Shown piece by piece: positions 6,682-24,568 of a stretch of DNA of 64,000 nucleotides. Made by a program: the position numbers and the translations under genes. A model generated the notes under the pieces. That model was not told the origin of the DNA. It was given only the letters and a program-made list of their open reading frames with translations, and did not search any database. Location of the stretch: positions 8,957-72,956 of the forward strand of contig JALHNQ010000010.1 of NCBI GenBank assembly GCA_022843405.1, given 5' to 3'. How positions within the stretch are numbered: position 1 is the stretch's first letter; each line of letters starts with the position of its first letter. Origin of the DNA: Methylocystis sp. Its GTDB lineage: Bacteria; Pseudomonadota; Alphaproteobacteria; Rhizobiales; Beijerinckiaceae.

Positions 6682-7349
6682 GACGCTTGGCCTCGGCGAC
6701 CTGTTGAACATCGAAAGCTGAGAAAATCGGATTTTTTCGTGAGCGCCGGATCGCTCTTGGCCGCTCATCTAGCATACCCCTTGTTCGAGGTATCGCAAGT
6801 GTAACGTCGCCGCTCAAAGCGACTATTGGGATCGCTGACGTGATCCCTCTTTGCTTCGGCCGCTTCAAGCCGCCACAGGATCAACCAATCCATTGGAAGT
6901 TTTTGAGATGCTCAATGGAGCCTGGCGGAACGCTCAACTTGGCGGGAAGCTGCGCCCGAATCAAATTCACGATTCGCTCAACAGCAGTCTCTGGTCCACC
7001 ACGCGCCGTTTCGATCCGGCTAACTCTACAGTCCTGCGGTCGAGTTGCAATCGCAGCGCTTCGAGCTCCTTTTGAGCATGCTCTATGACGGCGGACATCC
7101 ACTCGACTTGAGTCTCGGCCAAGCGCAGCATTGTCTCTGCGCGCTCAGCCCACAGCTCAGCGCGGCCCAAATCCTCCCTCAGGCGTCGGCGCCTCCTGGG
7201 CGCGCATTAGCGCATGGGCCGCCTGCTCCTCGAATGCTTTGATCGCCGCCGCTGTTCGAACACAAGATTTAGCGCGGCTCACGGGCAGGCTCATGCGTCG
7301 AACCATCGTTCTTGCGGATGGGTTCGTCCGCCGCCTGGTCAAAATCTGG

Positions 7350-8066
7350 CGCAGCACGACTTCTTTGTCGCCGATCGCGCGCTTGGTTCGAACGGCGCCG
7401 GCAATCTCGTCGACCTTTTTCGATAGCGGCTTTGTTCCCGGCAGGTGGGCATGCGCGACGTCGCAGGTGTCATCGATGTCGAGCATCACCGAAGACGGCG
7501 GCTTTTCGTAGGACGCCATCCATTGATCGACGAACGCAAAAGTGAAACGGATCACGTTGCGCAGCCCCCGCGTGTTCTCGAGGCGCAACAGCGTCGGTTG
7601 CGAGCACAGATCCTACCCCATGCAGGTCAGCGTCCGCAGGCGAGTTTGAAAGCCTGATCGAAGCACTGCGAGTCGAGATCGTCGGCGTCCTCGTAGCCGC
7701 GGGCAATTGCGAAAATGCGGGCGTGGATCATGTCGGCGAAGCTGAGCGCGATGTGCGACGGATTGCGGGCAGTCGGGAATGCGGCGCACGAGCCGTTCGG
7801 CGATCCCGAGCCGGCGCTCGGCCAGCGACAGAGGCATGACGCCGCCTTCCGAATTGATCCGACCGCGCCACCGAAGGCGCCGGTGATTTCTTGCGGGTGA
7901 CGGCGGGAAAGGAGAAGGCGACGGACGCATCGTCAAGCATGGCGGGCGTGGCGCGCGGATTTGGCGGACAAGATTGGCGTAGACGACCAAAGCTTATTCC
8001 CTATCAGCCTCTCACGCTACGCCCGCCAACCTCTCCCGCGACACGTCATGAATAGGATGAGCTAGG
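7350..8066 (-). pseudogene. Degenerate IS1380-family element (frameshifted, internally deleted transposase)
   Basis: Fragments in shifting frames: MLDDASVAFSFPAVTRKK, SEGGVMPLSLAERRLGIAERL, FADMIHARIFAIARGYEDADDLD, DLCSQPTL, MLDIDDTCD, LSKKVDEIAGAVRT. A probable end CCTAGCTCATCCTATTCATGA lies at 8046-8066. Confidence 0.8.
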
Positions 8067-8449
8067 TGTTTGGCTCCGGCACCTTAACGATGACAATAGC
8101 ATCGAAAGTGAAAACGCCAAGGAATTCAGTCGGGGGGATCGACGGTAGCGCTCCTCCGCTACCATGAACGATGTTTTATATTATATTTCTGTATGTTAGA
8201 AAAGTTTTCTCCTGTGCGGTCACACGCGATGGCGCGACGGAGCCGCTACCAGATGTGCAGAAGAGCAAAGCTTAGACGGCGAGCGGCGCGTTTGAACTTT
8301 TGAGTGTAAATGACCGTGTCGTTCAATAGATGGTCGAACGCTTCAACACTGATGACGTCGAAGCGCTTCTTCTCCGCAGCGCGTCTTGCCGCGCCAGTCA
8401 TTGGACGATCCCCGATCACCGATCTGTCAGTCGCGCTGGCGAAGCGCCG

Positions 8450-9886
8450 TCAATCGGCGACCGGCGTTGAATCGCTTTGGACGCCACGTCCGATCACGAT
8501 CTGGCCGACCGACCCTTCGACGTGAAACGCGAGGCCCGTCATTTTGGCGAAGAGGTCGATATCGCCGACGCCAATCGCGCAGGCGCCGATCTCCATCTCG
8601 GTCGCCATCAGATAGAGCGTCTGCATCAGCACGCCGACATGTTTTAGAACAAGCGCATAGGCGAAGCCGCTGTATTTCCATGACACGCGGCTAAAACGCG
8701 CCGCCATTGTGACGAGGACTTGCGGGACCCCCGGCGCGCCCATGGCGAATTGCGCGTCCTCCAGCATCGCGGCAAGCCAATGTTCACTCGTCTCGATCAG
8801 AACAAGAGCGTGGCGGTTGGCGTCGTAATGATAAAAGCCGCGCGCCAAACCCTCACATCTGTCGACGGCGAGATAGAGCTCCAATTCGTAGCTCGCGCCG
8901 CCGGACGGATAGGGACGAGGGGCGACCTCCAACTCCGGCCCTTCCTCGTCTTCGTCGGGCGATCGCTCCCGCGATATAATTCGCGCGGCGCCGCCGAGGA
9001 GCCGCGCGACCTCCGCCAGCGTGATCGGGCGCCGCTCATCGAAGGCGCGCGTCGAGCGCCGCCGTCTCAACAGTGAGGCAAAGGCCGAGGGCGGCGCCGT
9101 ATCAAGCGTCGTCAGGTCGATCGCCGGCCCTGGCCAACTCGGCCGTATCGCAGGCGGCGGCGCTGCGAGATGCGCGTGGGCGTAGAGCCCGCCGGTGGGA
9201 TTGGCGTGCCGTCCGTTGGTGCTGCGGGTATGGAACAGCAGATCGTGGAAGTCCCATAGAACGAGATCGCCGTCGCCTTCGGCCGCGCGCAGCCCTTGGT
9301 CGGCGTCGCGACCGGGCGCGAATAGAATCTGGCCGTCGAGGAGCAGCGCCAGCAGCTCGACGCCCGGAAAGTCCGCCGATTCACGAAGCTCTCTCACATT
9401 ACGCGCCGCCGACAGATGTGCGATCATTGCTGTGACGCTTGGGTCGCACAGTCGGAAAAGCGCACTCGCGCGCGGGGATTCGAGCACCAGGTCTGCGCCG
9501 CGCCGTCGCATATAGGCGAAGCGTGACAACGTCAGCGCGCGATCCTCGTCGATCTCGACCATCCGTGGCGCATAGTCGCGCATCTGCGGCTCGATGACGA
9601 TGAGATCGGGATCGCCCGGCGCGCGAGCCAGCCGATATTCGACGAGACCGTAAAGCGCCAGCCTTCGAACGAGTTCGCTTATCTCCGCGTCCGCATCCCC
9701 ATCGAACGCAACGCCGGTCTCGAAGTCGGCGGCGCGCGCTGTGACGTCGGCGCCGAACTTTCCGAACGCCACGGTTCGACCGTCGAAAATGGCTGAGAGG
9801 CCGCCCGCAGCGTTGGGCTCGAGCGTGATGCCAGGATTAAGTCGAGCGAAGAGCCGCGCCGGCGGTGGGGACGAATCGCTAAGCAA
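8450..9886 (-). CDS. SagB/ThcOx-family FMN-dependent azoline oxidase (RiPP dehydrogenase)
   Basis: RRRRSTRAF, RPYPSGGASYELELY, catalytic-type WKY (RVSWKYSGFAY) and GVLMQTLYLMAT. TTG start 1 nt after the YcaO stop. Confidence 0.92.
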   Translation of the reverse strand: MLSDSSPPPARLFARLNPGITLEPNAAGGLSAIFDGRTVAFGKFGADVTARAADFETGVAFDGDADAEISELVRRLALYGLVEYRLARAPGDPDLIVIEPQMRDYAPRMVEIDEDRALTLSRFAYMRRRGADLVLESPRASALFRLCDPSVTAMIAHLSAARNVRELRESADFPGVELLALLLDGQILFAPGRDADQGLRAAEGDGDLVLWDFHDLLFHTRSTNGRHANPTGGLYAHAHLAAPPPAIRPSWPGPAIDLTTLDTAPPSAFASLLRRRRSTRAFDERRPITLAEVARLLGGAARIISRERSPDEDEEGPELEVAPRPYPSGGASYELELYLAVDRCEGLARGFYHYDANRHALVLIETSEHWLAAMLEDAQFAMGAPGVPQVLVTMAARFSRVSWKYSGFAYALVLKHVGVLMQTLYLMATEMEIGACAIGVGDIDLFAKMTGLAFHVEGSVGQIVIGRGVQSDSTPVAD

Positions 9887-9887
9887 G

Positions 9888-12155
9888 TCAGGTGCGGGGA
9901 AACAATGGATTGAGATCGGCTTCCCGTACCGGCCGCTTGCGCAGACCTAACGCGACGGGAACGTCATAGAGGCGGCCGGGACCAAAGCGGCGATAGAAAT
10001 GCCGCAGCCCCGGAACGATCACTCGGACCACCGGCACGTCAATGTCGGGGCGCGTCTGATCGAGGACGAGGAAATCATATCCAGCCCGCGCGGCGAGCTT
10101 GACGCAGGCCAGAACCTGGTCACGGCCGTCGAGCTGGGCAAAGTTCTTGAACCGCGACCGCCCGAACGACGCTTTGCCCTGCGGCCGCAAATAGGCGTGC
10201 TTGCGCAAGGGCAAAGGGTCGCTTCCGTAATCGTCGTCTGGCCCGGGCGCAGGGCGGCCGCCGAGGCTCTCGATGGCAAGAAACTGGTTGAGCTCGGTCA
10301 TGGCGCGTAGCGTCGCGATTCGTGGATCGAAATGGGCGCCCGCCGCGACTTCGATATATTCCCGGCCGTCCTCGGTCCAATGGGCGACGGCGACGACGAC
10401 CGGAATGCCGAGATCGCTCGTTACGTCCAGCGCCCAGACGTCGCGGCCCATCCTGGCGAAGACGGCGCGGAGGTCGTTCACATAGCTGTCGCCGAGCTTG
10501 TCGAGATCGATCTCCGGACAACGCAACCGGTTGTACCACCAGATTGCATATGCATCACGCTCAACGAGTTCGAGGAAGCCTTGGATAATCGCTTCCTCGA
10601 TCGTATTGCCCGCCGCGCAACCGTTCGAATCAGCGCTGATCTCATTCGCGCAGCCGGACTCGTGGAAGAAATACAGAAGCCCGGTGGGAACGTATTTGAA
10701 GCCCTCGTCGCGCAGCGACCACACGGGCGACCATTCCGTCTCCGCGGCGGGATCGAAGCGCTGCGCGCCCTCGCCGCAGCCGCCGCTTTTTGCGCCCTGC
10801 TCATATTGCGCGTCGCTATAGTGCAAAATGTCGTTAGGCAGGATCGCCTCGCCCGCCGGGAAATCCGTATATCGCCGGACGGTCCTGATCTCGTCGCCCT
10901 GGAAAATCCCGCAGTAGCGCTCGATCGCCTCCATCAGCGCGCTTGCCTCGCCCTGTTCGGCGACGCTGCCCTTGCCATAGCTGTCGCCGCTCAGCCCGGC
11001 CTGAAGGGCGTCGACCGTTTCGGGGCGCGGCGAAAAATTGTGTCTGGCGACAAAGCTCGCGTCGAGCGGCTGTTGGCTCTTGATCCGATCAAGATGCGAT
11101 ACGACGCCGGTCAGCGGGCTGACATGCTTGCGATTGCGGGCAAGGGTGTCGCCCGGCGCGACTGATCGATAGCCCCCGCTCGTCACGACGCTCGCGCTGC
11201 CGGCATGCAGCGGGATGGGCGTGGGCGTTCGCGCGGGATCGCGCAGCTCGGGGTCGCCGCAGCTTGGGCATTGCGGCCGAGCCGGCACATAATGCCGTGC
11301 GACGGTCGAGCCCATCAGATCCAGGCTCACGATATGCTGGTGCAGATCGGTGCGGAAGCCGCTGGCGATCGCCTTGGCGATCTCCGCGGCGGCGAGGCCA
11401 GCGCCGCTCAGCCCGAGCGGATGGGCGCCGAGCGGCGAGACGGCGACGCAGCGCGCCTCCTTGCGGCCGAGGAACGCCTTGACCTGTCGGTTCCAGTTCA
11501 TCCGATCGGTGAGGCATCTCCAGCAGGCGCTCTTGCCAGGGCTGAAGATCGGGCCGACCAGCGGGAAAACGCCGGACGGCTGAACCAGCAGCCACTCCTG
11601 CTTTTCCTCGAGCCGCCGGCGGTTGAACTCCGCGAGCTGGCTTTCGAGATAATCGCCGACTAGGGCGACGATCAGATCGCCGCCGCGCTTCACGACCTTG
11701 ACGCCGAAAACGTCCAGCGCCTCCGCCAGCGCGCCCGCGCCGCCTATCCCGAGGGATTCGATCCGAACGGAGACCTTTTGCAGATTTTTTTCGGCGACGT
11801 CGGGCGGCAGGCCGAGACTGGCCCAATAGGCCGCCGCGATCCCATCGGATGCGGCCGCCGGGATGACGAAACGGCGATCAAGCAGGCGCTTGAACGCCTC
11901 GTCTATGGCGTCGACCGGAAACTCTGCGGAGAGCGCATCACGTATGGCGTGGGCGTCCTCTCCCGCGCCGATCCGCTCCGCCAGCGCGCAGTAGAGCGCG
12001 CCATGCAGAAAAAACTTTCTGTCCTCGGAATAAAGGCAGACAGCGTCAGGCGGCAGCACATAGACAGAAAAATTGGGCGAGAATCGAAGGGCGTCGCCAA
12101 ACGGCGCTTCTGGAACCTGCTTCCGCGAAAGCGATCCGGATGCTTCAACTGTCAT
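9888..12155 (-). CDS. Fused E1-like/RRE - YcaO cyclodehydratase (azoline-forming, C-D fusion)
   Basis: E1-like part with CWRC...CPSC Zn motifs and LVGPIF. YcaO motifs SYGKG, SALMEAIERY, DSNGCAAGN, ELVERDAYAIWW, VVRVIVPGL and a Pro-containing C-terminus LNPLFPRT. Confidence 0.95.
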   Translation of the reverse strand: MTVEASGSLSRKQVPEAPFGDALRFSPNFSVYVLPPDAVCLYSEDRKFFLHGALYCALAERIGAGEDAHAIRDALSAEFPVDAIDEAFKRLLDRRFVIPAAASDGIAAAYWASLGLPPDVAEKNLQKVSVRIESLGIGGAGALAEALDVFGVKVVKRGGDLIVALVGDYLESQLAEFNRRRLEEKQEWLLVQPSGVFPLVGPIFSPGKSACWRCLTDRMNWNRQVKAFLGRKEARCVAVSPLGAHPLGLSGAGLAAAEIAKAIASGFRTDLHQHIVSLDLMGSTVARHYVPARPQCPSCGDPELRDPARTPTPIPLHAGSASVVTSGGYRSVAPGDTLARNRKHVSPLTGVVSHLDRIKSQQPLDASFVARHNFSPRPETVDALQAGLSGDSYGKGSVAEQGEASALMEAIERYCGIFQGDEIRTVRRYTDFPAGEAILPNDILHYSDAQYEQGAKSGGCGEGAQRFDPAAETEWSPVWSLRDEGFKYVPTGLLYFFHESGCANEISADSNGCAAGNTIEEAIIQGFLELVERDAYAIWWYNRLRCPEIDLDKLGDSYVNDLRAVFARMGRDVWALDVTSDLGIPVVVAVAHWTEDGREYIEVAAGAHFDPRIATLRAMTELNQFLAIESLGGRPAPGPDDDYGSDPLPLRKHAYLRPQGKASFGRSRFKNFAQLDGRDQVLACVKLAARAGYDFLVLDQTRPDIDVPVVRVIVPGLRHFYRRFGPGRLYDVPVALGLRKRPVREADLNPLFPRT

Positions 12156-12243
12156 TTGGTTGTCGCGCGCTCCCCCGTCTTGTCGCGCCCAGCCGCGACA
12201 AGATTCGCTCGATCAGGAATCGGAGACAAGGCGCACGGGCGAC

Positions 12244-12299
12244 GTGGTGAAGCACTTCCGCACCACGCGACCGCCTCGGCCTGCGGCGCAGCCCGAGGC
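12244..12299 (-). promoter_or_regulatory. Two GC-rich hairpins between precursor and YcaO (possible mRNA stabiliser or attenuator)
   Basis: GTGGTG-AAGcaCTT-ccg-CACCAC (12244-12266) and GCCTCGG-c-CTGC-ggc-GCAG-c-CCGAGGC (12273-12299). No clear U-tract. Confidence 0.4.
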
Positions 12300-12337
12300 C
12301 TAACCCACCGCTCAGCCATTAAATGTGCGTCGGCGCG

Positions 12338-12682
12338 TCACCAGCAACCACGGCAGCCGCAGCCGCGACAGCCCCTGCAGCCGCACCCGCGGCACCCGCA
12401 GCCCCTACAGCCGCGGCATCCCCACCACCATGCGACCTGCTCGGTCTTCACGGCCGGGACTTCTTCGCGATCGAAAAGGCGGAATGAATTCAGCCCCACA
12501 TCGAACACTTCCTGTTCGCGGAGGTCGATTGTGCGCGTCCTGCTCGTTTCCGGCGTCGCTGCGGCGTCAGCAGGAGAGCTGTCCACGCAGGCGGCGCCCG
12601 CGAGTGACAAGGATACGCCCATCACGCCGAGCGCCTTTTTGCCTCGGCCTTTGCTCTGTGGGCTGTCCGATGAGCGCGCCAT
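12338..12682 (-). CDS. RiPP (linear azole-containing peptide) precursor, 114 aa, with a Gly-Cys/Arg repeat core
   Basis: GGAGG RBS 6 nt before ATG 12682. Ends ...EQVAWWWGCRGCRGCGCRGCGCRGCRGCGCRGCW. First gene of the operon with YcaO and SagB. Confidence 0.9.
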   Translation of the reverse strand: MARSSDSPQSKGRGKKALGVMGVSLSLAGAACVDSSPADAAATPETSRTRTIDLREQEVFDVGLNSFRLFDREEVPAVKTEQVAWWWGCRGCRGCGCRGCGCRGCRGCGCRGCW

Positions 12683-13176
12683 TAGAGTCCTCCCCAACGA
12701 TATTCAAAAACGCATCAGGGCAGATAATAGCGCTCATCTGGCGGCGGTCAATGCTCGCTCCAGGCTCAGCCCATATGAGACGGCTTACCTTGGCTGAGAG
12801 CTTGGGCATACTTTGCTAAGGTTTTTTCCGCCAAGCGCGTCGTGCGGCCTGTGGTGATTGAATCGATAAGCGAAGTCATAGGTGGCGTTGAGCTCGCATC
12901 GACAGGTTGATTGGGCGCGCTCGACGCAGCCGTTAACCCTGTGCGCGGACTGTGACGGACTGATGCGCCACGGTGAGGACGTTGCGCCCATCCGGTCGGA
13001 CTCCTTTCGTTGCGACACAGCATGAGCGCCGCCGCCATGCCTACCTCAACCGCATCATGGTCTTTCTTTGAGTTGCGTAGTGACGTCCTCGCCGCACGCA
13101 GCGCTTTTTTGGCGATGATGACTGATTTCGGGTCGGCATCTTGCGCGCGCGCTCACGAGAGGCCGACGTGTTTCAG

Positions 13177-14763
13177 CTATCCAATCTTGATCACAACGCC
13201 TTCATTGCCACGAAGCTCGAGCTTGGCGTGGACACGGTCACCGCTTCGCCCGCTATGTGTCGACAGCGCGATCGCGCCGGAAAGACCATTTGGCAGCGAA
13301 AAACTTCGGGTGTCATGACAAAAATTCAGCGCGACCAAAATCTGGTCGGCGCCGTGAAGCCGCTCATAGGCAAGAACATGATCGCTCGCGTGAAGCAGCC
13401 GCTGAGAACCTATGCCGAGCGCGGGGTGCGCGCGTCTGTAATGAAGCAGCTTGCTGGTGAGGCGGAGAATAGACGTGTCGTCCTCACGCATTGTCGCAAC
13501 GTTTCGCGTCGCAAAATCAGGCGTGAGCGGAAGCCAGGGCTCGCGCGTCGAGAATCCTGCGAAGGCGCTGGCGTCCCATTGCATCGGCGTTCGCGACGGA
13601 TCGCGGCCGACGCCAAGATCGGGCTCTCGCATGCTCCAGGGGTCCTGCGCGCGTTCCGGCGCAATATCGACGTGGCCGATTCCGATCTCATCGCCATAAT
13701 AGAGCGTCGGCGTACCGTGCAGCGTCAAGAGTAGCATCGTCGCGAGCCGCGCTTGTGCGGCGCCAACGCGCGCCGCGATGCGCGGCCTGTCGTGATTGCT
13801 GAGCACCCAATTCGGCCAGGCGCCCCGCGGCAAAGCCGCTTCATACTTTTCGATAATGTTGGCGATCGACGCAGCGTCCCAGCGCGCGTCGAGCAACTGA
13901 AAATTGAACGGCAAGTGTACGCCGCCAAGCTCTTTCCCGTAATAGGCGACCAGCCTCTCGATCGGCAGATAGATTTCGCCGATCAGCACCCGGTCGGGAA
14001 ACTCATCGACGACTCGCCGAATCTCCGCGATCACGTCGTGAACCTCAGGCTGATCGGACGAATAGGTCTGCGCAAGCCGCGCAATATCCGGCCCCTCGCC
14101 GGCGAAATTCGGATTGGCCGGATTGTCCCGGAAGGCGGCGTCCTTAACAATATGCGAGATGACGTCGACGCGAAAACCGTCGACGCCGCGCCGCAGCCAG
14201 AAGCGCAGCACATCGTGCATCGCGGCGCGCACTTGCGGATTGCGCCAGTTGAGATCGGGCTGCTCAGGCAAGAATGAATGCAGATAATATTGCCGCGTTC
14301 CCTCGTCCAAGCTCCAAGCGCTTCCTCCGAAGTGGCTGAACCAATTGTTGGGCGGTCCGCCATCGGGCGCGGCGTCGCGCCAGAGATACCAGTCGCGCAA
14401 GGGATTATCGCGACCGCTTCTGCTCGCGAGAAACCAGGGATGTTCATTGGAAGTGTGGTTGGGCACGAAGTCGATGATGATTTTCAGGCCCTTCGCATGC
14501 GCCGCCGAGACCAGCGCGTCAAAATCATCCAGGGATCCGAATAGCGGATCGACGTCGCAATAGTCCGAAACGTCATAGCCAAAGTCATGCATCGGAGAGG
14601 GATAGAAAGGCGAAAGCCAGATCGCGTCTATCCCCAGCCAGACGAGATAGTCGAGCCGTTGACGCACGCCATCGAGATCGCCGACGCCGTCGCCATTCGT
14701 ATCTTGAAAGGAGCGTGGATAGATTTGATAGATCGTCGCCGCTCGCCACCAGTCGTCGGGCAT
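13177..14763 (-). CDS. GH13 alpha-glucosidase / oligo-1,6-glucosidase family
   Basis: WWRAATIYQIYPRSFQD, DFVPNHTS, GFRVDVI, IGEIY and LSNHD catalytic motifs. Start MPDDWW at 14763. Confidence 0.95.
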   Translation of the reverse strand: MPDDWWRAATIYQIYPRSFQDTNGDGVGDLDGVRQRLDYLVWLGIDAIWLSPFYPSPMHDFGYDVSDYCDVDPLFGSLDDFDALVSAAHAKGLKIIIDFVPNHTSNEHPWFLASRSGRDNPLRDWYLWRDAAPDGGPPNNWFSHFGGSAWSLDEGTRQYYLHSFLPEQPDLNWRNPQVRAAMHDVLRFWLRRGVDGFRVDVISHIVKDAAFRDNPANPNFAGEGPDIARLAQTYSSDQPEVHDVIAEIRRVVDEFPDRVLIGEIYLPIERLVAYYGKELGGVHLPFNFQLLDARWDAASIANIIEKYEAALPRGAWPNWVLSNHDRPRIAARVGAAQARLATMLLLTLHGTPTLYYGDEIGIGHVDIAPERAQDPWSMREPDLGVGRDPSRTPMQWDASAFAGFSTREPWLPLTPDFATRNVATMREDDTSILRLTSKLLHYRRAHPALGIGSQRLLHASDHVLAYERLHGADQILVALNFCHDTRSFSLPNGLSGAIALSTHSGRSGDRVHAKLELRGNEGVVIKIG

Positions 14764-14780
14764 GACGTTTTCTCGCTGCG

Positions 14781-16970
14781 TTAAGCGCAGACAATGCGCA
14801 GACGCGCGGAGAGTAGCCTGTCCGGATCGGCGCTGAGTCCAGCAAAAATATCGACATCGCCCGGCTCGACGACAGGCTCCATATCCTCCCCGGGAAACTG
14901 GAACGCCTCCGCGCTCAGAGCGAAGTCGACCGTCGCGGTTTCTCGCGGTTGTAGAGCGACTTTCGTCCAATCCTTCAGCTCGATCAGCGGGCGCGCCACG
15001 CTCGCAATCCTGTCGCGCGCAAAGAGAAATATCGTTTCCTCGGTCGCGATGTCGCTCTCGCTGCGCACGTCGACTCTGACTTTCGCCGGTTGGCTTGTGT
15101 TCAGTTCGGCGCAGTCGACGCGCAAATTCGATAAGGTCGTGCGCGAAAAGGAAAGGCCGTGGCCGAAGGGAAACTGTGGATCGTTCGAACAGTCGAGATA
15201 TCTACTCGTGTAAGGATTGGCGGCGTCGAAAGGCCGGCCAGTCGATCGCGCCGAATAGAAAATCGGAACTTGTCCGACCTCTTGCGGCCAGGTGACGGCG
15301 AGCCGGGCGCTAGGATTGAAGCGGCCCGTCAGAATGTCGGCGATCGCCTCGCCTGCCCTATCGCCGAGAAACCATGCGGCGACGACCGCCTGCGCACGTT
15401 CGAAAAGCCAGGGGACAGCCAGCGGCCGCCCGCAGAACAGTAGCGCGACCGTCGGCGCGCCGGCGCTCATAACGCGCTCCGCAAGCTGGCGCTGCTTTCC
15501 AGGCAGGCCGAGCGCGGCGCGGCAGGCGGCCTCGCCGCTCATGCCCGCTGACTCGCCCAGACAGAGCACGACGGCGTCAGCGCCTTTCACCAGAGCGCAG
15601 GCGGGTGCGATGCCGCTCTCGTCGTCGCCCTCGATCGCGACGCCGCTGTGATGCGCTATCTCGCAGTTCGGTAGAGCGCGGCGCAGTCCTGCGAAGGTCG
15701 TGACGCAATTCTCGGCGCCGCCTGCCGCGGACCAGGGACCGAGCATATCCGCGCCCGCATCAGCGAGAGGTCCGATAATGGCGATGCGGCGCACGTTGGC
15801 GGAAAGCGGCAGAAGACCGCGATTGGTTAGGAGAGTCGCAGACCGCCGGGCCGCTTCCAGCGCAAGCCTGCGATGAGTTTCCTTGGCGCCGGCGTCCAAC
15901 CGGACGACACGATAGGGGTCGTCGAAAAGCCCCAGGCGATCCTTCAACTGCAGCACGCGTGCGACAGCGGCGTCGATATCGCGCATATCGACGAGGCAGC
16001 GATCGAGCGCTTCCGGCAGATGCGCGAGATAGACGCCGCTGACCATATCCATGTCTACGCCCGCCTTGAGCGCGATCGCCGCCGCCTCGACCGAATCGGC
16101 GGCGACGCCGTGCTCCACTAGTTCAGCGATCGCCGTGTAATCGCTCATGATGACGCCGTCGAATTTGAGCCGGCGCCGCAGATATCCATTCAACAGTCGG
16201 CGTTGCGCAGCCATGGGCGCGCCATTCACATTGTTGAACGCCGTCATGACCGCCGCGCAGCCGGCCTCCAGGGCGGCGCGAAACGGCGGTAGATAGACTT
16301 CATGCAGCGCGCGTTCGGAGACGTCCACAGCGGCATAGTCGCGCCCTGCCGTCGCGGCGCCGCCGGCGCAAAAATGCTTGGCGGTCGCCGCGAGGGGATA
16401 AAATCGCGAGAAGTCGTCGCCCTGAAAGCCTCTTACCTTCGCCTGCGCGAATTTTTCTCCCACCAACGGATCCTCGCCAGGACCTTCGGCGATGCGGCCC
16501 CAACGCGGGTCGCGGGACACATCGAGCATCGGCGCGAAGGTGAGATGGATTCCCTCGCTCGCCGCCTCCAACGCCGCGGCGCGGGCGGTGCGCTCCCATA
16601 ATCGAGAATCGAAGGCGCCGGTTTCCGCAAGCGGAATGGGAAAAATCGTTCGGTGTCCGTGCAGCACGTCGAGTCCGAAGAGCAGCGGCACGCCTAGCCG
16701 GGTCTCTTCAACCGCGCTGCGCTGCGCGCACGCCAGCGCGTCTAGTCCCCAGAGGTTGAAAACGCCGCCCACTCGACCAGCGCATATGTCTTTGGTCGTA
16801 TCGCCGCAGACGACGGGACCAGTGACCGCTTGGCCGGCCGTCACGAGGTTGAGCTGGCCAAGCTTTTCTTCCAGCGTCATCGCGCGCAACAGGCAATCGA
16901 TACGGCTCAAGGCGTCGTCCCGCAGTTTGGCAGTGCGCCGCAGCAGAACATGACCCTCGCTTCGGCGCAA
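14781..16970 (-). CDS. GH3 beta-glucosidase (BglX-like)
   Basis: MTLEEKLGQL, DVLHGH, RDPRWGRIAEGPGEDP, KHF, nucleophile MSDY, GESAGMSGE, FPFGHGLSF and an Fn3-like tail. Start uncertain. Confidence 0.93.
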   Translation of the reverse strand: MRRSEGHVLLRRTAKLRDDALSRIDCLLRAMTLEEKLGQLNLVTAGQAVTGPVVCGDTTKDICAGRVGGVFNLWGLDALACAQRSAVEETRLGVPLLFGLDVLHGHRTIFPIPLAETGAFDSRLWERTARAAALEAASEGIHLTFAPMLDVSRDPRWGRIAEGPGEDPLVGEKFAQAKVRGFQGDDFSRFYPLAATAKHFCAGGAATAGRDYAAVDVSERALHEVYLPPFRAALEAGCAAVMTAFNNVNGAPMAAQRRLLNGYLRRRLKFDGVIMSDYTAIAELVEHGVAADSVEAAAIALKAGVDMDMVSGVYLAHLPEALDRCLVDMRDIDAAVARVLQLKDRLGLFDDPYRVVRLDAGAKETHRRLALEAARRSATLLTNRGLLPLSANVRRIAIIGPLADAGADMLGPWSAAGGAENCVTTFAGLRRALPNCEIAHHSGVAIEGDDESGIAPACALVKGADAVVLCLGESAGMSGEAACRAALGLPGKQRQLAERVMSAGAPTVALLFCGRPLAVPWLFERAQAVVAAWFLGDRAGEAIADILTGRFNPSARLAVTWPQEVGQVPIFYSARSTGRPFDAANPYTSRYLDCSNDPQFPFGHGLSFSRTTLSNLRVDCAELNTSQPAKVRVDVRSESDIATEETIFLFARDRIASVARPLIELKDWTKVALQPRETATVDFALSAEAFQFPGEDMEPVVEPGDVDIFAGLSADPDRLLSARLRIVCA

Positions 16971-17018
16971 TAATCCGTTCTAAGCTGAAACTACCATTGG
17001 CAGATTTCTAGACCGCAA

Positions 17019-18872
17019 ATGTCAAAGCCGTTGCGGTCGGCGACGAGAATTGGGGCGATCAATCCTAAGATGGCGAATACGAAAACCCAGCCGTCACAAG
17101 CGCGAAGGATTGCGGCCGAAAGCCTCTCGTCGCACCTGAGATTGACGCTCGACGCAGTGAGAGGGTCCCGCCAGCGGTCCGCGCTGATCTGGCTTGGCGC
17201 CGGTCTTGCGGTCATCATCGCCGCAACGGCCTATGGGCAGATTCGGCTCAATGCCTGGAACAAGCCCTTTTATGACGCGCTCGCCCGCAAGGATCTCGCC
17301 GGCTTCGGCGATCAGCTCATCGTCTTCGCGATCATCGCCGGCGCGCTGCTCATCCTCAACGTCACGCAGACTTGGCTCGCGAACCTGACTAAGCTGAAAC
17401 TGCGGGAGTCGTTGACGCGAGACTTATTCGATCAGTGGCTAACGCCGCATCGCAGCTTCCGCATCGCCGGCATGGGCGAAATCGGCGTCAATCCCGATCA
17501 GCGCATACATGCCGACGCGCAACATCTCGCCGAGCTGTCGACGGATCTCGGCGTCGGCCTGCTACAGGCGACATTGCTGCTCATAAGCTTCATCGGCGTG
17601 CTGTGGGCCTTATCCGCGGGCGTGACCTTCGACATTTTCGGAACAAGGATGATCATTCCAGGCTACATGGTATGGAGCGCGCTGCTCTATGCCAGCATCG
17701 CTTCCTTCGGCAGCTGGCGCGTCGGCCGGCCGCTCGTCGAACTCGGCGCCGAGCGTTACGGGCGCGAATCCGACCTGCGCTTTGCGTTGATGCATGTCAA
17801 TGAGCATGTCGAGGCGATCGCCGTCTGCCGCGGCGAAGCCATCGAGGAAAACGGTCTGCATCAGGAGTTTGACCGCCTGCTGACGGTGTTGCGTCGGCTC
17901 GTGACAGCGACGACCAATCTGACCTGGGTCACCGCCGGATACGGCTGGTTCACCATCGTCGCGCCGATCATCGTCGCCACGCCCGCCTATTTCGCCGGAA
18001 ATCTCACATTTGGCGGCTTGCTGATGGCGGCCGGCGGCTTTTCGCAGGTGCAGCAATCGCTTCGCTGGTTTGTCGACAATGCCGGCGTCATCGCAGATTG
18101 GCGCGCGACCCTGCATCGCGTGGCGGGTTTTCGCGAGGCGCTGCTTGAACTCGACAAAGCCGTTCCAGATGCGCGCCGCATTGCTTTCGAAGAAACAGGA
18201 AATGATCTGCTCGTTCTCGACGATCTGCGGATCCTCTCCTATGCCGGCCACACGACCTTGAGTGAATCCCACGTCGAAATTGCGCCCGGGGAACACGTGC
18301 TGATCGTCGGCGAACGCAAATCGGGCAAAACTCGCTTGTTTCAAACGATCGCCGGTTTGTGGGCGGCTGGAAGCGGCAAGGTCCGCACGCCGCCTGCTGA
18401 GCGCGTTCTCTTCGTTCCCATGCGCGCTTACCTTCCAGACCTTTCTCTGCGAAGCTCGCTTTCTTATCCTTTGCCGCCAACGAGCTTTCCAGACGAAGCC
18501 TATGTGGCCGCCCTGACGCGGCTTGATCTTGGACATTTCGTTCCCTGGCTCGATCGCGTCGCGCGATGGGAACAGGAGCTGACTGATATTGAGCAGCAGG
18601 AACTGGCTTTTACCAGAATCCTGCTTCACAAGCCGCGCTTCGTCATCGTCGATGAGGCGCTCGACTCTCTCTCGTCCCACGCCCGCCAGCTTCTTTTCGC
18701 CGCGCTCGAAAAGGAACTCACGACGACGGCGTTTATCCATATTGGCGGACCAAAGAGCGGTGACCGCTTTTTCCGGCGCGTTCTGCATCTGACTCTGGAC
18801 GCGTCGCGCCAATCGGCCGAGGCGCAACCACGTCAACCGCCGGAAACACTGGCGCCGCAGGATGCGCCTTAG
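17019..18872 (+). CDS. Fused ABC transporter permease/ATPase, YddA/BclA/ABCD (SbmA-BacA-like TMD) family
   Basis: LNAWNKPFYDAL, VNPDQRIHAD, ESDLRFALMHVNEHVEAIA (EAA-like), Walker A GERKSGKT and Walker B VIVDEA. Confidence 0.88.
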   Translation: MSKPLRSATRIGAINPKMANTKTQPSQARRIAAESLSSHLRLTLDAVRGSRQRSALIWLGAGLAVIIAATAYGQIRLNAWNKPFYDALARKDLAGFGDQLIVFAIIAGALLILNVTQTWLANLTKLKLRESLTRDLFDQWLTPHRSFRIAGMGEIGVNPDQRIHADAQHLAELSTDLGVGLLQATLLLISFIGVLWALSAGVTFDIFGTRMIIPGYMVWSALLYASIASFGSWRVGRPLVELGAERYGRESDLRFALMHVNEHVEAIAVCRGEAIEENGLHQEFDRLLTVLRRLVTATTNLTWVTAGYGWFTIVAPIIVATPAYFAGNLTFGGLLMAAGGFSQVQQSLRWFVDNAGVIADWRATLHRVAGFREALLELDKAVPDARRIAFEETGNDLLVLDDLRILSYAGHTTLSESHVEIAPGEHVLIVGERKSGKTRLFQTIAGLWAAGSGKVRTPPAERVLFVPMRAYLPDLSLRSSLSYPLPPTSFPDEAYVAALTRLDLGHFVPWLDRVARWEQELTDIEQQELAFTRILLHKPRFVIVDEALDSLSSHARQLLFAALEKELTTTAFIHIGGPKSGDRFFRRVLHLTLDASRQSAEAQPRQPPETLAPQDAP

Positions 18873-19681
18873 GCTCCTTGACGGAGTCGCGCGAGCGCGC
18901 CCCACAACCCACCGTAGTCGCCGAGCGCCGCGTGGACGATGTCGGGAAGCGCGGGGTTCTTTCGCGGTAGCGCCCGTAGATAGGTCGCGGTCTGTTCAAT
19001 TGAGATGCCGATCTCGCGCATCATCGAGCCACCCATTACGATTCGGTCTGGCGACCAATGGGCGATGGCGTTGTGCAGCGCGCGCGCAGTAATATTGGCG
19101 AGCTCATCCCATATTGGATGATCCTTTCCGAGCGCGCGGGGTTCGACGCCAAAGCGGTTCGCGACGGCGCGTCCCGAGACAAGCTCTTCGAAATTGAGCG
19201 CGCCGGCGTCGATATATTGCTCGCCGATTTCGAAGCCATAGGTCGCACGGTCAATTCTCCCGTCGACGATGCGCGCACCGTTCACGCCAGTGGAGATGGT
19301 GACATATGCGAGGATGGCGGAACCTTGCCCAGCGCCGGCGGTCGCCTCCCCTAACCCCACAAGCGCCGTGTCGTTCTCCAGTAAGACCGGCGCGCCGAGA
19401 CTGGCCTCAACGTCTTCGGCCAATGTCGCGCCATTCCAAATTGGCAGGTTGGGGGCATTGACGAGGACGCGCTTGTCGCGCGACAGCACGCCAGGCACGC
19501 CGATCGCTACAGCATGAATTCGGTCGCCGGCCGCCGCCTTCAAAGCCGCAGCGCGCAAAAGCTCTAGCCCGTCACCATATTCGCTCGGCGTTTTGAGGAT
19601 CACGGCCTCGGTAAGTTCGGCAAGATCGGACGAGCCGGCGACTCGCGTTTTCGTCCCGCCGATGTCGACGACAACATACAT
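18869..19681 (-). CDS. ROK-family sugar kinase
   Basis: VDIGGTKT, LENDTALVGLGE, ISTGVNG and GFEIGE motifs. Confidence 0.85.
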   Translation of the reverse strand: MYVVVDIGGTKTRVAGSSDLAELTEAVILKTPSEYGDGLELLRAAALKAAAGDRIHAVAIGVPGVLSRDKRVLVNAPNLPIWNGATLAEDVEASLGAPVLLENDTALVGLGEATAGAGQGSAILAYVTISTGVNGARIVDGRIDRATYGFEIGEQYIDAGALNFEELVSGRAVANRFGVEPRALGKDHPIWDELANITARALHNAIAHWSPDRIVMGGSMMREIGISIEQTATYLRALPRKNPALPDIVHAALGDYGGLWGALARLRQGA

Positions 19682-19996
19682 CGATGCGCTCCGTCCGGCT
19701 GGTCAACTCGTCCCCTTCACGCGCCACTTTCGTTGCGAGCGCATCGATCGGGGGCTTCGACTACTTCTTCGTCGCTGATATGGCGAAGGTCCGGATAGAA
19801 ACAACCGGCGGCGAATCAGCTCCGTCGGCTACGCTCGCATTGCAGGAGCGGCCGGTCATGACCTAACATCCGATCCGGACCACGCCATGGGGCCCGTCAG
19901 CCCGAAAAATTGTGTACGCTGAACTTACCGGAAGACATCACAAATAAAATGACATTCCGCTTCGATCATAACAAACCCGGAACCAGGATACGGCCA

Positions 19997-21274
19997 ATGG
20001 CCTTCAAAGCTCCTCGCAGCGTGTGGAAAGGCCTTATCGCGGTCGCTCTCGTCGCCGCCGTAGCATTCCCCGCGACGATGTTCCTTATCAGGGCGGAAAA
20101 CGCGCCGATAAAGGTCGGAATTCTGCATTCGCGCTCCGGGCCGATGGCGATCAGCGAAAATTCAATGGTCGACGCGGAGCTGCTCGCGATTGAGGAAATC
20201 AATGCGAGAGGCGGATTACTGGGACGCAGGATTCAGCCGATCATCGCCGACGGCAAATCCGATTGGCCGACCTTCGCGAAAGAGGCCGAGCGCCTGATCA
20301 CCCAGGAAAACGTATCCGTGATCTTTGGATGCTGGACTTCCGCGAGCCGTAAGACGGTCGCGCCCATTATCGAGAAATACGGTCAGCTCATGGTCTATCC
20401 CATGGCTTATGAGGGACTCGAACAGTCCCCCAATATTATCTACACGGGCGCGGCGCCCAATCAGCAGGTCATTCCAGCCATCAAATGGAGCCTCGATCAC
20501 ATTGGCAAAAAATTCTATTTGATCGGCTCAGATTATGTTTGGCCGCACAGCATCAACGAAATTATGAAGGACACGATTCGCGCGCTTGGCGCGGAGCTTG
20601 TGGGCGAAGACTATATTTTCTTCGGAAGCGCCAATGTTTCTCGAGCGGTCCAAAAAATCAAGCTGGCGCAGCCGGACGTTATTATCAGTTCAGTCGTGGG
20701 CGATTCCAACAAGGCGTTCTATCAGGCGCTGTCCGACGCTGGGCTTTCCGCTAACAAGTTGCCGGTTGTCTCCGTCAGCATCGGCGAGGAGGAGCTTCGC
20801 AGCCTGCCGATCGCCAGCCTTCAAGGCCATTACAGCGCCTGGAGTTATTTCGAGGCAATCAAAAAGCCGGAAAACGAACGGTTCATTCGCGCCTTTCGTC
20901 AAAGATATGGCGCCGACCGTGTGACGGGCGACGTTATTGCGACCTCATACTTCAGCGTCATTTTATGGGCAAAGGCGGTTGAGGAGGCGCAGTCCATCGA
21001 CGTCCAGAGGGTTAAGCGCACCATGCTGACCGAAACCCTCGACGCGCCCGAAGGTCTGGTGTCGGTCGATCCATACACCCAGCATACTTGGCGGTCTTTT
21101 TCTGTAGGCAAGATTCGAACCGATGGCGTGATCGAGCTTGTCTGGACGATCGATCGCCCGATCCGTCCCGTGCCCTATCCGCCGACTCGCACGAAAGCCG
21201 CGTGGGAGGAATTTCTGACCGCCTTGTATACCGGATGGGGCGGCAGATGGGCGAATCCGGTAGAGGCGGACTGA
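19997..21274 (+). CDS. UrtA/AmiC-like periplasmic substrate-binding protein (urea/amide type)
   Basis: IKVGILHSRSGPMAISE, FGCWTSASRK, YEGLEQSPNIIYTGAAPNQQ and GSDYVWP. N-terminal hydrophobic anchor. Alternative start 19949. Confidence 0.9.
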   Translation: MAFKAPRSVWKGLIAVALVAAVAFPATMFLIRAENAPIKVGILHSRSGPMAISENSMVDAELLAIEEINARGGLLGRRIQPIIADGKSDWPTFAKEAERLITQENVSVIFGCWTSASRKTVAPIIEKYGQLMVYPMAYEGLEQSPNIIYTGAAPNQQVIPAIKWSLDHIGKKFYLIGSDYVWPHSINEIMKDTIRALGAELVGEDYIFFGSANVSRAVQKIKLAQPDVIISSVVGDSNKAFYQALSDAGLSANKLPVVSVSIGEEELRSLPIASLQGHYSAWSYFEAIKKPENERFIRAFRQRYGADRVTGDVIATSYFSVILWAKAVEEAQSIDVQRVKRTMLTETLDAPEGLVSVDPYTQHTWRSFSVGKIRTDGVIELVWTIDRPIRPVPYPPTRTKAAWEEFLTALYTGWGGRWANPVEAD

Positions 21275-21277
21275 TCG

Positions 21278-24049
21278 ATGAAGCTTCCCAGGCTCGATTT
21301 TCTCCGGCGCTCCATCGGCGCCAAGATCATCTTCTGGTTCCTTGCGATCAATATCGTCTCCTGCGGCCTCCTTGCCTGGCGAACTTATGACATTTCGCGC
21401 GAGTCGCTCGAACAGGCGATTCAGACGTCGCTGCAGGTTGTCGCCAAGAAGAAAGTGGAGCAGCTGGAGGCTCTGACGCTTGAAAAAATCCGAAGCGTCG
21501 AGTCCTTGATGCACAGCGCGTCGATTGGCGAAGCCGCCCGAGAATTTTCCGAAGCCATAAGGACGAGTGGGAGAGAATCGGAAGCCTATCGCCAGGCGAT
21601 CGCGAAACACGGCCCGACTCTCAAGCGTCTCTCCGACACGTTCAACTACGTCGGCTGCGCGATTGTCTCTTCCGAAGGCGTCACGCTTTTCGCCCAATCG
21701 GACATGGCGCCGTTCAACGCAAATTCGCTCGGCGGACCGCTCAAGGAAACGGAGCTTTCGGACACGATCGATCGGGCGCGCACATTGCTGCAAGCCGAAA
21801 TCTCGGCGTTTCAAATCTACCCGGGGCAAAAAGAGCCTGCCGCCTATATAGCGGGGCCTGTCCTCGACAATGGCGTCGTGATCGCGGTCGTCGTCTTCCA
21901 GCTCGATAACCAGGAGATTTACAGCCTCATCAACGACTATACCGGTCTCGGCGAGACGGGAGAGGTGCTGGTCGCGGCGCAATTCGATCAGGGCCAATTG
22001 GTCGTGGTCAACCCGCTGCGGCACGACGCTTCCAAGGCTTTCAGCATCAGGGCGCCGCTCAATGGCGGCGCTTTTCCAGCGCTCGCCAGGGCGCTCGCCG
22101 GCGTCCATGGCTCGGGTCTTTTCGATGATCTCGAGCACAGACCCGTTGTCGCCTCGTGGACTTATGTTCCGTCCTTTCGCTGGGGCATGGTCGTGCAGCA
22201 GAGCACGGCGGAGGCCTTTGCGCTCACCCGTGCGCAAAAAGAGGCAACGCTCTGGCTGCTGTTTTTTATGATTCCGCCGATTATCGCTCTGGCGATGGGC
22301 GTCGCGCGCACGATCACCAGGCCTATCAAGACCGCTGTCGGCGTGGCCGAGAGGGTCGCCGCGGGGGACCTCGACGCAAATTTCGAGATCGATAGCCGCG
22401 ACGAAACGGGGCTTCTGCTGACGGCGATCCGCTCCATGACCGGGGAACTCCGCGAACTTTACGACTCCATGGAGGACAAGATACGGGCCCGCACGCGCGA
22501 ACTTCAGCTCGCGAACGAGGAATTGTCGATCGCGCGCATGGCGGCCGAGGAAGCCAGCAAGACAAAGAGCGCCTTTCTAGCCAATATGAGCCATGAGCTG
22601 CGCACGCCGCTCAACGCCATCATCGGTTATAGCGAAATGCTTCAGGAGAACGCGCTCGACAACGGCGACCCAGAGCCGATCGAGGACCTGAAGAGGATCG
22701 AGAGCGCGGGCCGACACCTGCTTGGCCTGATCAACGATATTCTCGATCTTTCCAAAATCGAAGCCGGAAAGATGGAGGTCTTCATCGAGCGGGTGGAGAT
22801 CCGGCCGCTCGTGAACGAGGTTATTTCGATCGTTCAGCCTCTGGCCGACAAGAACGGCAATGCGCTAGAACTCTGCTGCGCGGACGATGTGGGCGGCTTT
22901 CTATCCGACGAAACGAAGGTCAAGCAGTGCCTGCTCAATCTCATGAGCAATGCAAACAAATTCACGAGCCACGGAAAAGTCACCCTGACCGTTGAGCGGG
23001 ACGCCGACGCTTCCGTGGTATTCCACGTGTCGGACTCGGGGCTCGGCATGACGGAGGAGCAGCTTGCCCGCCTGTTCGAAGCCTTCACCCAGGCTGACGC
23101 CTCGACCACGAAGCGCTTTGGCGGGACGGGGCTTGGGCTCGCGATCACCAAGCATTTCTGCGCGGCGCTCGGCGGCGATGTTTCGGTTGAAAGCGCGCCG
23201 GGCGTCGGCTCGACCTTCACGATCAGGCTTCCGGACCGGCAAGAGCCGGTCGAGACGAAGGATCGGGCCGAGGCGACTTCGTCCCGGCCGCTCCCGACGA
23301 TACTGGTCGTCGATGACGACGCTATGGCGCGCGACCTGCTCACACGAACTTTGGAGAGCAAGGGCTATCGCGTCATCGCCGCGCGTCACGGGCTGGAGGC
23401 GATGTCTCTCGCGAGACAGCACAGGCCACAGGCCATAACGCTCGATGTGATGATGCCGCAGCTCGATGGCTGGGGCGTGCTCAGGCAGCTCAAGGAGGAT
23501 GAAGAACTGCGAAACATTCCCGTCATCATGGTGACGATTCTCAGCGAGCGCGCCCTGGCGATTCCGCTCGGGGCGGCGGAGTTTTTGACAAAGCCGATCG
23601 ACCGTCAGCGCCTGACCGCCCTGATAACGCACTATTGCGGGGCCTCGAGCGAAAATACGGTTCTGATCATTGAGGATGACCCCGCGACGCGCGAGCTTCT
23701 TCGCCGCTGCGTTTCGGGCGCCGGCTACAAGGCCGAAACCGCGATCAACGGTCAGGATGGGCTCGACTGGATCGCTGAAAATCCGGTTCCGGATCTTATC
23801 CTTCTCGACCTGATGATGCCAAATCTCGATGGATTCGGTTTCTTGAGTGAATTGCGTAAGCGCCGCGCCTATGACCATTTGCCGGTCATCATCGTCACAG
23901 CGAAGGATCTCAGCGACGAGGATATTTGCAAATTGAGAGAATTCAGGGCTGACATCATCACAAAGGACCACGACTATCTTGAAGAACTGGTGACGATTAT
24001 GCGTCAATGCCTCAATCCCAGCGTGGCGGACGCTGCCCAAGTGCATTGA
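21278..24049 (+). CDS. Hybrid sensor histidine kinase (TM-Cache-like-TM-HAMP-HisKA-HATPase-REC-REC)
   Basis: [44 protein letters not shown] and two receivers (LDVMMP, LDLMMP). Confidence 0.95.
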
Positions 24050-24066
24050 CATTGGAGAATGGGCTG

Positions 24067-24438: not shown

Positions 24439-24568
24439 CATCGTCTGATCAGGCCGTCACGCCGAGCGAACTCTGGCGGTCCCATCGGTTGTAAGAGCTC
24501 ATGACAAACACGACTGACGCATCTTGGACGGCGGACGCCGGCGCGCTTCGGATTTCTGGAAACATAAA

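Follow-up and report, generated by a model that had tools for sequence, protein, structure and literature searches.

The formation of thiazoles in RiPPs (ribosomally made peptides that are modified after translation) by a YcaO enzyme and a flavin mononucleotide (FMN)-dependent oxidase is textbook enzymology. The closest described systems are the cyanobactins, which rely on the heterocyclases LynD, TruD or PatD (MusD in the linear muscorides) and the oxidases ThcOx or CyaGox; the heterocycloanthracin/sonorensin group of thiazole/oxazole-modified microcins (TOMMs) of Bacillus; and microcin B17, produced from McbA by McbBCD. Here, we describe a related operon in a 64,000-nucleotide stretch of a Methylocystis sp. 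genome (contig JALHNQ010000010.1; this whole stretch is referred to as the window). The operon encodes a precursor peptide, a heterocyclase in which a RiPP recognition element (RRE), an E1-like and a YcaO domain are fused, and an azoline oxidase. It is probably a working operon of the linear azole-containing peptide (LAP)/TOMM type, combining cyanobactin-type enzymes with a precursor from a large undescribed alphaproteobacterial family, the product of which would be exported and, in most relatives, trimmed in the periplasm. The new features, which go beyond the textbook enzymology, are the signal-bearing precursor family and a co-evolving periplasmic amidase.

The three genes are co-oriented on the minus strand in the order precursor, YcaO fusion, oxidase, as a preliminary description of the locus had stated. 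Each is single-copy, and a search of the host's own genome found no second precursor, YcaO or SagB gene. The features of the operon are as follows.

12338-12682, minus strand: precursor gene, 114 aa plus stop
12563-12682, minus strand: precursor residues 1-40, Sec-type signal-peptide-like segment (read from the sequence)
12431-12562, minus strand: precursor residues 41-84, acidic leader (family alignment)
12341-12430, minus strand: precursor residues 85-114, core WWW(GC/RGC)x10-W (sequence)
12156-12337, minus strand: spacer of 182 nt between the precursor and YcaO genes (fold and terminator scans)
9888-12155, minus strand: RRE (winged helix)/E1-like/YcaO fusion, 755 aa (family and PDB matches)
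8450-9886, minus strand: FMN-dependent azoline oxidase, ThcOx N-domain plus nitroreductase/SagB domain, 478 aa (family and PDB matches)
12724-12751, minus strand: sigma-70-type promoter TTGACC-16 nt-TATTAT (scan, 10/12 matches)
8377-8401, minus strand: 5' stub of a gene for an amidase with a twin-arginine translocation (Tat) signal (comparison with amidase-bearing relatives)

Enzymes and precursor compared with described systems

The YcaO fusion scored 138.8 bits against TIGR03882, the TOMM leader-binding/E1-like domain (cutoff 36.9, residues 187-352), 246.3 bits against TIGR03604, the SagD-type cyclodehydratase family (cutoff 219), and 309 bits against PF02624; a weak winged-helix match covers residues 26-94. 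In a PDB search, residues 23-751 aligned with LynD (E 6e-137), with further matches to TruD (E 7e-133) and MusD (E 3e-122). The alignment with LynD includes domains 1 and 2; the two pairs of Zn-binding residues, CWRC and CPSC, coincide with their LynD counterparts (CWxC, CPxCG), and so do the YcaO nucleotide-site motifs MEAIERY (EAIER) and AAGNTIEEAIIQGFLELVERD, the shared motif forms being ExxER and AAGNTxEEAxxxGxxELVERD. The C-terminal VPGLRHF...GRLYDVP block is also kept in this alignment. By these homologies, the fusion is an ATP-dependent cyclodehydratase of the LynD/TruD (cyanobactin D-protein) type.

The oxidase matched TIGR03605 with 166 bits (cutoff 78) as well as PF22767 (ThcOx) and PF00881, and its residues 96-468 aligned with CyaGox in the PDB search (5lq4, 8pz5; E 3e-53). 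The W-K-Y motif is present. The gene starts with TTG, 1 nt past the YcaO stop, and the relatives have the identical 1-nt gap. The Zn, ATP-site and WKY motifs and the TTG start were thus correctly recognized in the preliminary description, which had named the enzymes as an E1-like/YcaO protein and a SagB-type oxidase. That assignment stands in general terms and can be narrowed: on the homologies found, the pair is cyanobactin-type (LynD/TruD plus CyaGox/ThcOx), not a generic SagBCD or McbBCD set. Judged from its domains and motifs, it has everything needed for ATP-dependent cyclodehydration of Cys to thiazoline and FMN-dependent oxidation to thiazole. The operon as a whole carries the parts by which a LAP/TOMM cluster would be recognized in sequence, namely a YcaO protein with ATP-site motifs, an E1-like/RRE part, a SagB-type dehydrogenase and an adjacent precursor.

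The core of the precursor, WWWGCRGCRGCGCRGCGCRGCRGCGCRGCW, contains 10 Cys, 10 Gly, 6 Arg and 4 Trp and no Ser or Thr, exactly the composition reported before. Gly precedes every core Cys, and the C-terminal residue is Trp (TGG). The ten Cys are most likely the residues turned into thiazole rings. The leader carries the motif L-x-E-x-E-x-F-D-V-x-L-x-S-F-R-L-F-D-R-E, which is the most conserved part of the precursor family (family-wide form LxEEExFDVxLxSF(R/Y)(L/V)FD(R/K)E). Among 33 sequences, E58, F67 and F70 are invariant, and L54, E56, D61, L64, D71 and E73 are conserved in at least 90%. The computed net charge is -3 for the leader; that of the core is +6. By analogy with the LynD-PatE pair, the heterocyclase presumably binds this acidic leader through its RRE domain.

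The first 40 residues comprise a basic n-region (net +4) and an h-region, ALGVMGVSLSLAGAA, of 15 residues with a computed Kyte-Doolittle maximum of 1.57, followed by candidate cleavage sites of the A-x-A type (ADA↓A) or at AAC↓V. Positions G19, G22, S24 and A28 are conserved in at least 90%, and the h-region shows a small-xxx-small pattern (GVMGVSLSLAG; GxxGxSLSLAG in the family) with A-x-A-like sites beyond it. We infer that this N-terminus directs Sec export. The preliminary description had made no use of the segment, and its resemblance to a signal peptide changes the likely site of action of the product. Two other readings of the N-terminus were rejected: LAGAAC as a lipoprotein site, since its Cys lacks conservation and Gly occupies position -3, and a Tat signal, since the window copy has no RR and the RR of relatives lacks the RRxFL context. 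The start codon is the ATG at 12682, preceded by the Shine-Dalgarno sequence GGGGAGG; a TTG at 12697 was rejected because it is not conserved, all relatives begin with MARSSD, and the Shine-Dalgarno sequence sits at the ATG. Long opposite-strand open reading frames (ORFs) of up to 339 aa run across the operon and overlap the precursor and YcaO genes (e.g., 11778-12797, plus strand); they are taken to be high-GC artefacts.

No Pfam or NCBIfam model matches the window precursor. The preliminary description had proposed a homologue search to define its family, and this revealed a large family rather than an orphan: a word-based search returned 57 homologues, all annotated as hypothetical and mostly from Methylocystis, and a profile search of 1.8 billion representatives returned 1164 clusters (at 50% identity) at E<=1e-3 and 638 at E<=1e-10. 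Members occur in about 28 Methylocystis or related genomes and in most sampled Methylocystis species, a list biased towards Methylocystis-like leaders, the contig scan having used leader motifs from 15 closer sequences. Ten representatives of the wider family looked up by cluster were all metagenome proteins, and the wider family reaches non-methanotroph Alphaproteobacteria (a Xanthobacteraceae contig). A tblastn search of PLSDB plasmids with a typical family member gave no match. Full-text literature searches, with subscription journals outside their coverage, returned no description of the family.

Members share a basic N-terminus, a hydrophobic stretch, the acidic leader, A-W-W and a core of (R/G)GC or GC units; distant members carry an extra GCCxSWGxCRxC tail. 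Adjacency of precursor and YcaO genes is kept in more than 30 loci, and in M. bryophila and four metagenome contigs (L038-L041) the same fusion enzyme, at 55% identity, is encoded directly downstream of the precursor. Every family member retains the (R/G)GC pattern, while strains with near-identical leaders differ in their number of units; the polymorphism goes by whole codons and always keeps the Gly-Cys rule (leaders at least 95% identical). Between the cores of the window (12341-12430) and of loci L007-L022, the GC, RGC and GGC units differ in order and number. Two further observations concern precursor copies outside such operons. Contig L037 encodes two divergent paralogues (7205-7612, minus strand; 7944-8357, plus strand) with a signal and an EEEIFDVxLATF leader, short Cys-containing tails of another type and no YcaO gene in the surrounding 8 kb; they could be orphans or be modified by another enzyme. 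On contig L008 (10001-10372), a copy with a decayed or frameshifted core (P0039) lies amid IS110 and integrase genes, without any modification enzyme.

Compared with cyanobactins, the operon shares the full-length RRE/E1-like/YcaO fusion with its Zn and ATP motifs, the ThcOx-type oxidase including its N-terminal domain, and the expected leader-directed chemistry from Cys through thiazoline to thiazole. It differs in lacking PatA/PatG proteases, macrocyclisation and PatE-type recognition sequences, and in its alphaproteobacterial host, signal-bearing precursor and single 30-residue, ten-Cys repeat core at the C-terminus. No gene for a PatA/PatG-type Peptidase_S8 was found in the gene tables of four neighbourhood types. 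Without PatA/PatG and a PatE-type precursor, the operon is not a cyanobactin operon, though the enzymes are shared.

With the heterocycloanthracin/sonorensin group (TIGR03601), the operon shares a Cys-Xaa-Xaa repeat core, a fused cyclodehydratase and strain-variable copy number; core units C-R-G, C-G-G and C-G occur throughout the precursor family. The claim that the core matches no characterised azole peptide had overlooked these cores. A distant family member, P0067, scored 23.2 bits against TIGR03601, below the cutoff of 35, and the window precursor gave no match to this model. The differences lie in the unrelated leader, the Arg/Gly-rich repeats, the signal-peptide N-terminus and the Gram-negative hosts. 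Microcin B17 is similar in its Gly-rich precursor, the conversion of Gly-Cys to thiazole and the set of YcaO protein, E1-like protein and FMN dehydrogenase. However, its B, C and D proteins are separate in an octameric synthetase, whereas the window operon has the E1-like and YcaO parts fused, and mcbEFG export/immunity genes, TldD/E leader removal and Ser-Cys fused bis-heterocycles have no equivalent here.

Two systems from methanotrophs also invite comparison. The chemistry of the operon is YcaO-based, not MbnB/MbnC-based as in methanobactin operons, and the gene tables of the cluster and related neighbourhoods, to which this check was confined with the rest of the genome not searched, contain no DUF692/MbnB-type gene. 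The Mpr proteusin cluster (cited in PMC12455567) of another methanotroph, Methylovulum psychrotolerans, likewise pairs a YcaO enzyme with an FMN oxidase for azole formation, the cyclodehydratase MprC and the oxidase MprD; it is set apart by a gammaproteobacterial host and NHLP-type leaders with a protein-like fold. The window precursor had no NHLP match in Pfam or NCBIfam.

Amidase and the precursor C-terminus

A tblastn survey of 37 loci showed two ancestral operon layouts. Thirteen loci with varied flanks share the order carbamoyltransferase-precursor-YcaO-oxidase-amidase. In the M. rosea-like clade, nikR stands divergent from the precursor, followed by YcaO, oxidase and, optionally, amidase, and most of these loci have a TonB-dependent receptor on the far side of nikR. 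The co-oriented fourth gene, an amidase with a Tat signal, is present in about 23 of 30 related loci. The locus had been described as a three-gene cluster, which holds for the window; by this comparison, however, the three-gene state is derived, and the ancestral operon had the amidase as its fourth gene.

The protein belongs to the amidase-signature enzymes (NF004816/PRK06170); among solved structures, it is nearest to the urethanases UMG-SP1 to SP3 and to ClbL. Its N-terminus is a twin-arginine signal in three lineages (TRRAFLMGAG, TRREVLIGAG, ARRDVLIGAG), indicating that the enzyme works in the periplasm. Of the amidase gene, the window keeps no more than seven codons at the 5' end (MTGAARR, 8401-8381), beyond which lies DDE-transposase debris, and the genome contains no orthologue of the amidase or the carbamoyltransferase, only paralogues at 26-42% identity.

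The presence of the amidase covaries with the end of the precursor. All seven loci without it (the window, L009, L010 and L019-L022) end in ...GCW, and all 23 loci with it have one or two small residues after the last Cys (G, GG, GA or AG); the tails are hydrophobic or aromatic in the two deeper amidase-less lineages, L006 (M. bryophila) and L036. In a maximum-likelihood tree of the YcaO fusion and oxidase (supports 81-100), the Trp/no-amidase state appears in four separate places, and Fitch parsimony gave four changes. The scars of the amidase also vary: a 5' stub in the window, a 54-residue internal remnant in L009, a degenerate start region in L010, and clean deletions with different left borders in L021 and in L019/L020. 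These differing remnants and deletion borders indicate independent losses. The stop codon after the Trp is TGA in one group and TAA in the other.

The enzyme genes separate the last precursor codon from the amidase gene by 4 kb, and the recurrent joint change over this distance argues for functional coupling. The simplest reading of this pattern is that the amidase acts on the residue or residues after the last thiazole or thiazoline, and that a terminal Trp makes the amidase dispensable or compensates for its loss. Co-evolution of a periplasmic amidase with the peptide C-terminus is, in addition, independent support for the peptide crossing the inner membrane. A natural strain pair exists in M. 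rosea GW6 (amidase, ...GCG) and SV97 (no amidase, ...GCW); besides SV97, the cultured M. borbori and Methylocystis sp. H62 are in the Trp/no-amidase state.

A NodU/CmcH-type carbamoyltransferase gene lies directly upstream of the precursor in one clade (L001:8219-9898, L004:8148-9827 and 11 other loci), and probably belongs to the operon because its flanks vary. Since urethanases, the nearest solved relatives of the amidase, cleave carbamates by hydrolysis, one can imagine a cycle of carbamoylation of the peptide in the cytoplasm and its decarbamoylation in the periplasm. In the precursor alignment, inspected by eye, carbamoyltransferase presence did not covary with any precursor feature. Just upstream of the operon, three lineages encode an S9 (prolyl-oligopeptidase family) peptidase (L001:5953-7908, L033:4068-5981 and L031:6662-7654, all on the minus strand), a candidate leader peptidase; no homologue was found in the window's own genome at E<=1e-5. 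No ABC exporter, efflux pump, protease or immunity gene is conserved with the operon in the relatives' neighbourhoods. The lack of a dedicated transporter or immunity gene fits export through the general Sec pathway.

Promoter, host and genomic surroundings

The promoter lies about 40 nt upstream of the precursor start, with a T-rich 5' untranslated region and the Shine-Dalgarno sequence between them. Its -35 and -10 hexamers are fixed in position across about 30 related loci of both major clades and its spacer sequence varies, the pattern expected of a real promoter. The Shine-Dalgarno sequence likewise keeps its place in the different clades. The spacer between the precursor and YcaO genes contains three GC-rich hairpins with no T-run (fold energy -94.6 kcal/mol, z = -2.06), and no intrinsic terminator was found in it. 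Other lineages have GC hairpins of different sequence at the same place, as judged by eye. These hairpins may form an RNA-stabilising or attenuating element that sets the precursor:enzyme ratio. All three ORFs are full length against their orthologues, and dN/dS ranged from 0.06 to 0.23 in four comparisons (precursor residues 1-84, 0.06-0.21; YcaO fusion, 0.06-0.16; oxidase, 0.14-0.23). By these measures, the operon is intact and under purifying selection.

Syntenic DNA is 86-90% identical at the nucleotide level to Methylocystis rosea (CP034086) and 94-96% identical to a contig of a metagenome-assembled genome (MAG), L009, and pmoA is present in the same genome (C67:10295-11050; PF02461, 361 bits). 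Taken together, these identify the host as a Methylocystis-type methanotroph, which had been raised only as a condition before.

Homology to relatives spans only about 8377 to about 12854 of the window. Beyond these limits, the operon is flanked by insertion sequence (IS) debris and a glycosidase gene; the IS fragments are listed below, and neither the DDE-transposase nor the IS3-type fragments have a second copy in the genome.

7157-7731, minus strand: degraded DDE transposase fragments (PF13701), downstream of the operon
12785-13018, minus strand: degraded IS3-type integrase-core fragment (rve_3), upstream of the promoter (weak match, E 2e-4)

Relative to the loci L011 and L009, 7-13 kb of unrelated genes part the operon from its former neighbours. 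The inserted DNA covers 12855-19940 of the window in comparison with L011 and 12855-26267 in comparison with L009; it includes an alpha-amylase-family gene (13177-14970) and separates the operon from a substrate-binding protein/kinase/cyclase region (19941-26201). On this evidence, the locus is a rearrangement hot spot.

The only metal-related context of the operon is the pair of nikR and a TonB-dependent receptor in one subclade. The nikR gene (NF002815, 178 bits) adjoins the precursor divergently in 11 M. rosea-like loci (L007:6634-9649, L012, L013 and L015-L022), nine of which also have the receptor; flanks in the other clades are unrelated. Two variants of the receptor exist (about 70% and about 98% identity). 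In the window's own genome, the nikR-receptor pair is on another contig (C24:21127-24143). An alignment of the intergenic regions of the 11 loci showed no palindrome in the shared promoter-proximal ~100 bp, and a conserved block beside nikR lies 350 bp away from this shared block. The alignment neither supports nor refutes NikR control.

Maturation, function and significance

We propose the following order of events. The near-consensus promoter would drive strong transcription of the precursor, and the hairpins ahead of the enzyme genes probably shift the balance towards the precursor transcript. The acidic leader motif would be bound in the cytoplasm by the winged-helix (RRE) domain at the N-terminus of the LynD-like enzyme, whose YcaO domain with ATP would cyclodehydrate up to ten Gly-Cys units to thiazolines. 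The ThcOx-like FMN oxidase would then convert these to thiazoles, yielding a (Gly-thiazole) chain with six Arg interspersed and Trp caps. The N-terminal Sec-type signal would carry the modified peptide over the inner membrane, where signal peptidase would cleave it. In most relatives, the Tat-exported amidase may then act on the one or two small residues past the last Cys; with the amidase deleted in this genome, the peptide would end in Trp instead. The acidic leader may mask the cationic core until a protease cuts at the conserved A↓WW junction.

This proposal is least certain where the function of the product is concerned. Our best single guess, put forward tentatively, is that the product could be an extracytoplasmic cationic antimicrobial or competition peptide. 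The Arg- and Trp-rich core and the strain-variable loci, mobile within the genome, point in this direction, and to our knowledge every characterised LAP is antimicrobial or cytolytic. The same precedent bears on a classical antibacterial LAP acting inside target cells on gyrase, ribosomes or nucleic acids, in the manner of microcin B17, klebsazolicin and phazolicin, with the hydrophobic N-terminal segment merely part of a long leader. The resemblance of (Gly-azole)n with guanidinium groups to minor-groove binders would suit such a target, and variation between strains in repeat number, tailoring genes and genomic site is reminiscent of bacteriocin loci. Still, we regard this as unlikely: no immunity gene, efflux pump or dedicated exporter is conserved, the basic, hydrophobic N-terminus with A-x-A is kept family-wide, the co-evolving amidase is periplasmic, and the core composition is conserved rather than hypervariable. 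A composition so conserved suggests a physico-chemical function more than an antibiotic in an arms race, and thereby speaks for a metal-handling peptide, a ligand for copper, nickel or some other metal that would act in the periplasm or outside the cell as a chalkophore- or nickelophore-like compound, or as a periplasmic metal buffer. A methanotrophic host, CxxC and CxC spacing as in metallothioneins, the nikR and receptor neighbours and a periplasmic site suited to metal delivery agree with such a role, as do the patellamides, cyanobactins made by homologous enzymes that bind Cu(II). Yet the thiolates, the strong ligands, are lost when thiazoles form; nikR and the receptor adjoin the operon in one subclade only and lie apart from it in this genome; the conserved promoter-proximal 100 bp hold no palindromic operator; no uptake or export genes travel with the operon; and the wider family extends to non-methanotrophs. 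A metal role therefore also appears doubtful. Copper binding has no support from any analysis made, and the earlier suggestions of nucleic-acid, ribosome or copper binding are pure speculation. It is very improbable, in our estimate, that the family embodies a new azole-peptide maturation logic in full, with cytoplasmic modification, Sec export and removal of "follower" residues by the periplasmic amidase, and with a peptide that stays in the periplasm or the lumen of the intracytoplasmic membranes handling Cu or Ni.

Several observations weigh against the proposed working operon with an exported, trimmed product. The nearest solved relatives of the amidase are not peptidases, and no outer-membrane route is visible in a Gram-negative cell in which Sec export reaches the periplasm only. 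The h-region motif GxxGxSLSLAG is more conserved than in ordinary signal peptides, so that its role could lie in recognition or membrane anchoring and not in that of a cleaved signal. Its small-xxx-small pattern and the missing export route would fit an uncleaved signal-anchor, making the peptide an envelope component held in the inner or intracytoplasmic membrane with its polythiazole/Arg tail exposed to the periplasm. The h-region is, however, short and only moderately hydrophobic, and A-x-A-type sites lie beyond it in most members; an anchored product thus seems quite unlikely. The operon in the window is moreover flanked by IS debris and without its amidase, and could be heading to decay despite purifying selection. 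Taken further, it would be a remnant moved or rearranged between IS elements, with no functional product; IS fragments on both sides, the amidase stub and a neighbourhood that differs from L011 and even from the 94-96% identical MAG locus L009 are what such a history would leave behind. Three full-length ORFs with dN/dS of 0.06-0.19 against close relatives and an intact promoter and Shine-Dalgarno sequence argue otherwise. The Trp/no-amidase state, having arisen four times and persisted in cultured species, points to a viable alternative rather than decay, and we judge a non-functional remnant highly improbable.

Beyond the enzymology, several points stand out. The precursor family is large and occurs in most Methylocystis species sampled, yet neither Pfam nor NCBIfam has a model for it. 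Its precursors carry a conserved signal peptide ahead of the leader with no dedicated transporter present, and bacteria rarely export RiPPs by the general secretory route. The covariation of the amidase with the last residue makes a concrete, testable prediction about a new processing step and its compartment, and since Methylocystis can be cultured and the natural strain pair GW6/SV97 exists, this prediction is directly testable. If the amidase does remove follower residues in the periplasm, it would represent a previously undescribed class of enzyme for RiPP tailoring or processing. Should the product be antimicrobial, it would provide a new LAP scaffold, (Gly-thiazole)n-Arg; should it bind metals, methanotroph metal biology would gain a second peptide system unrelated to the first.

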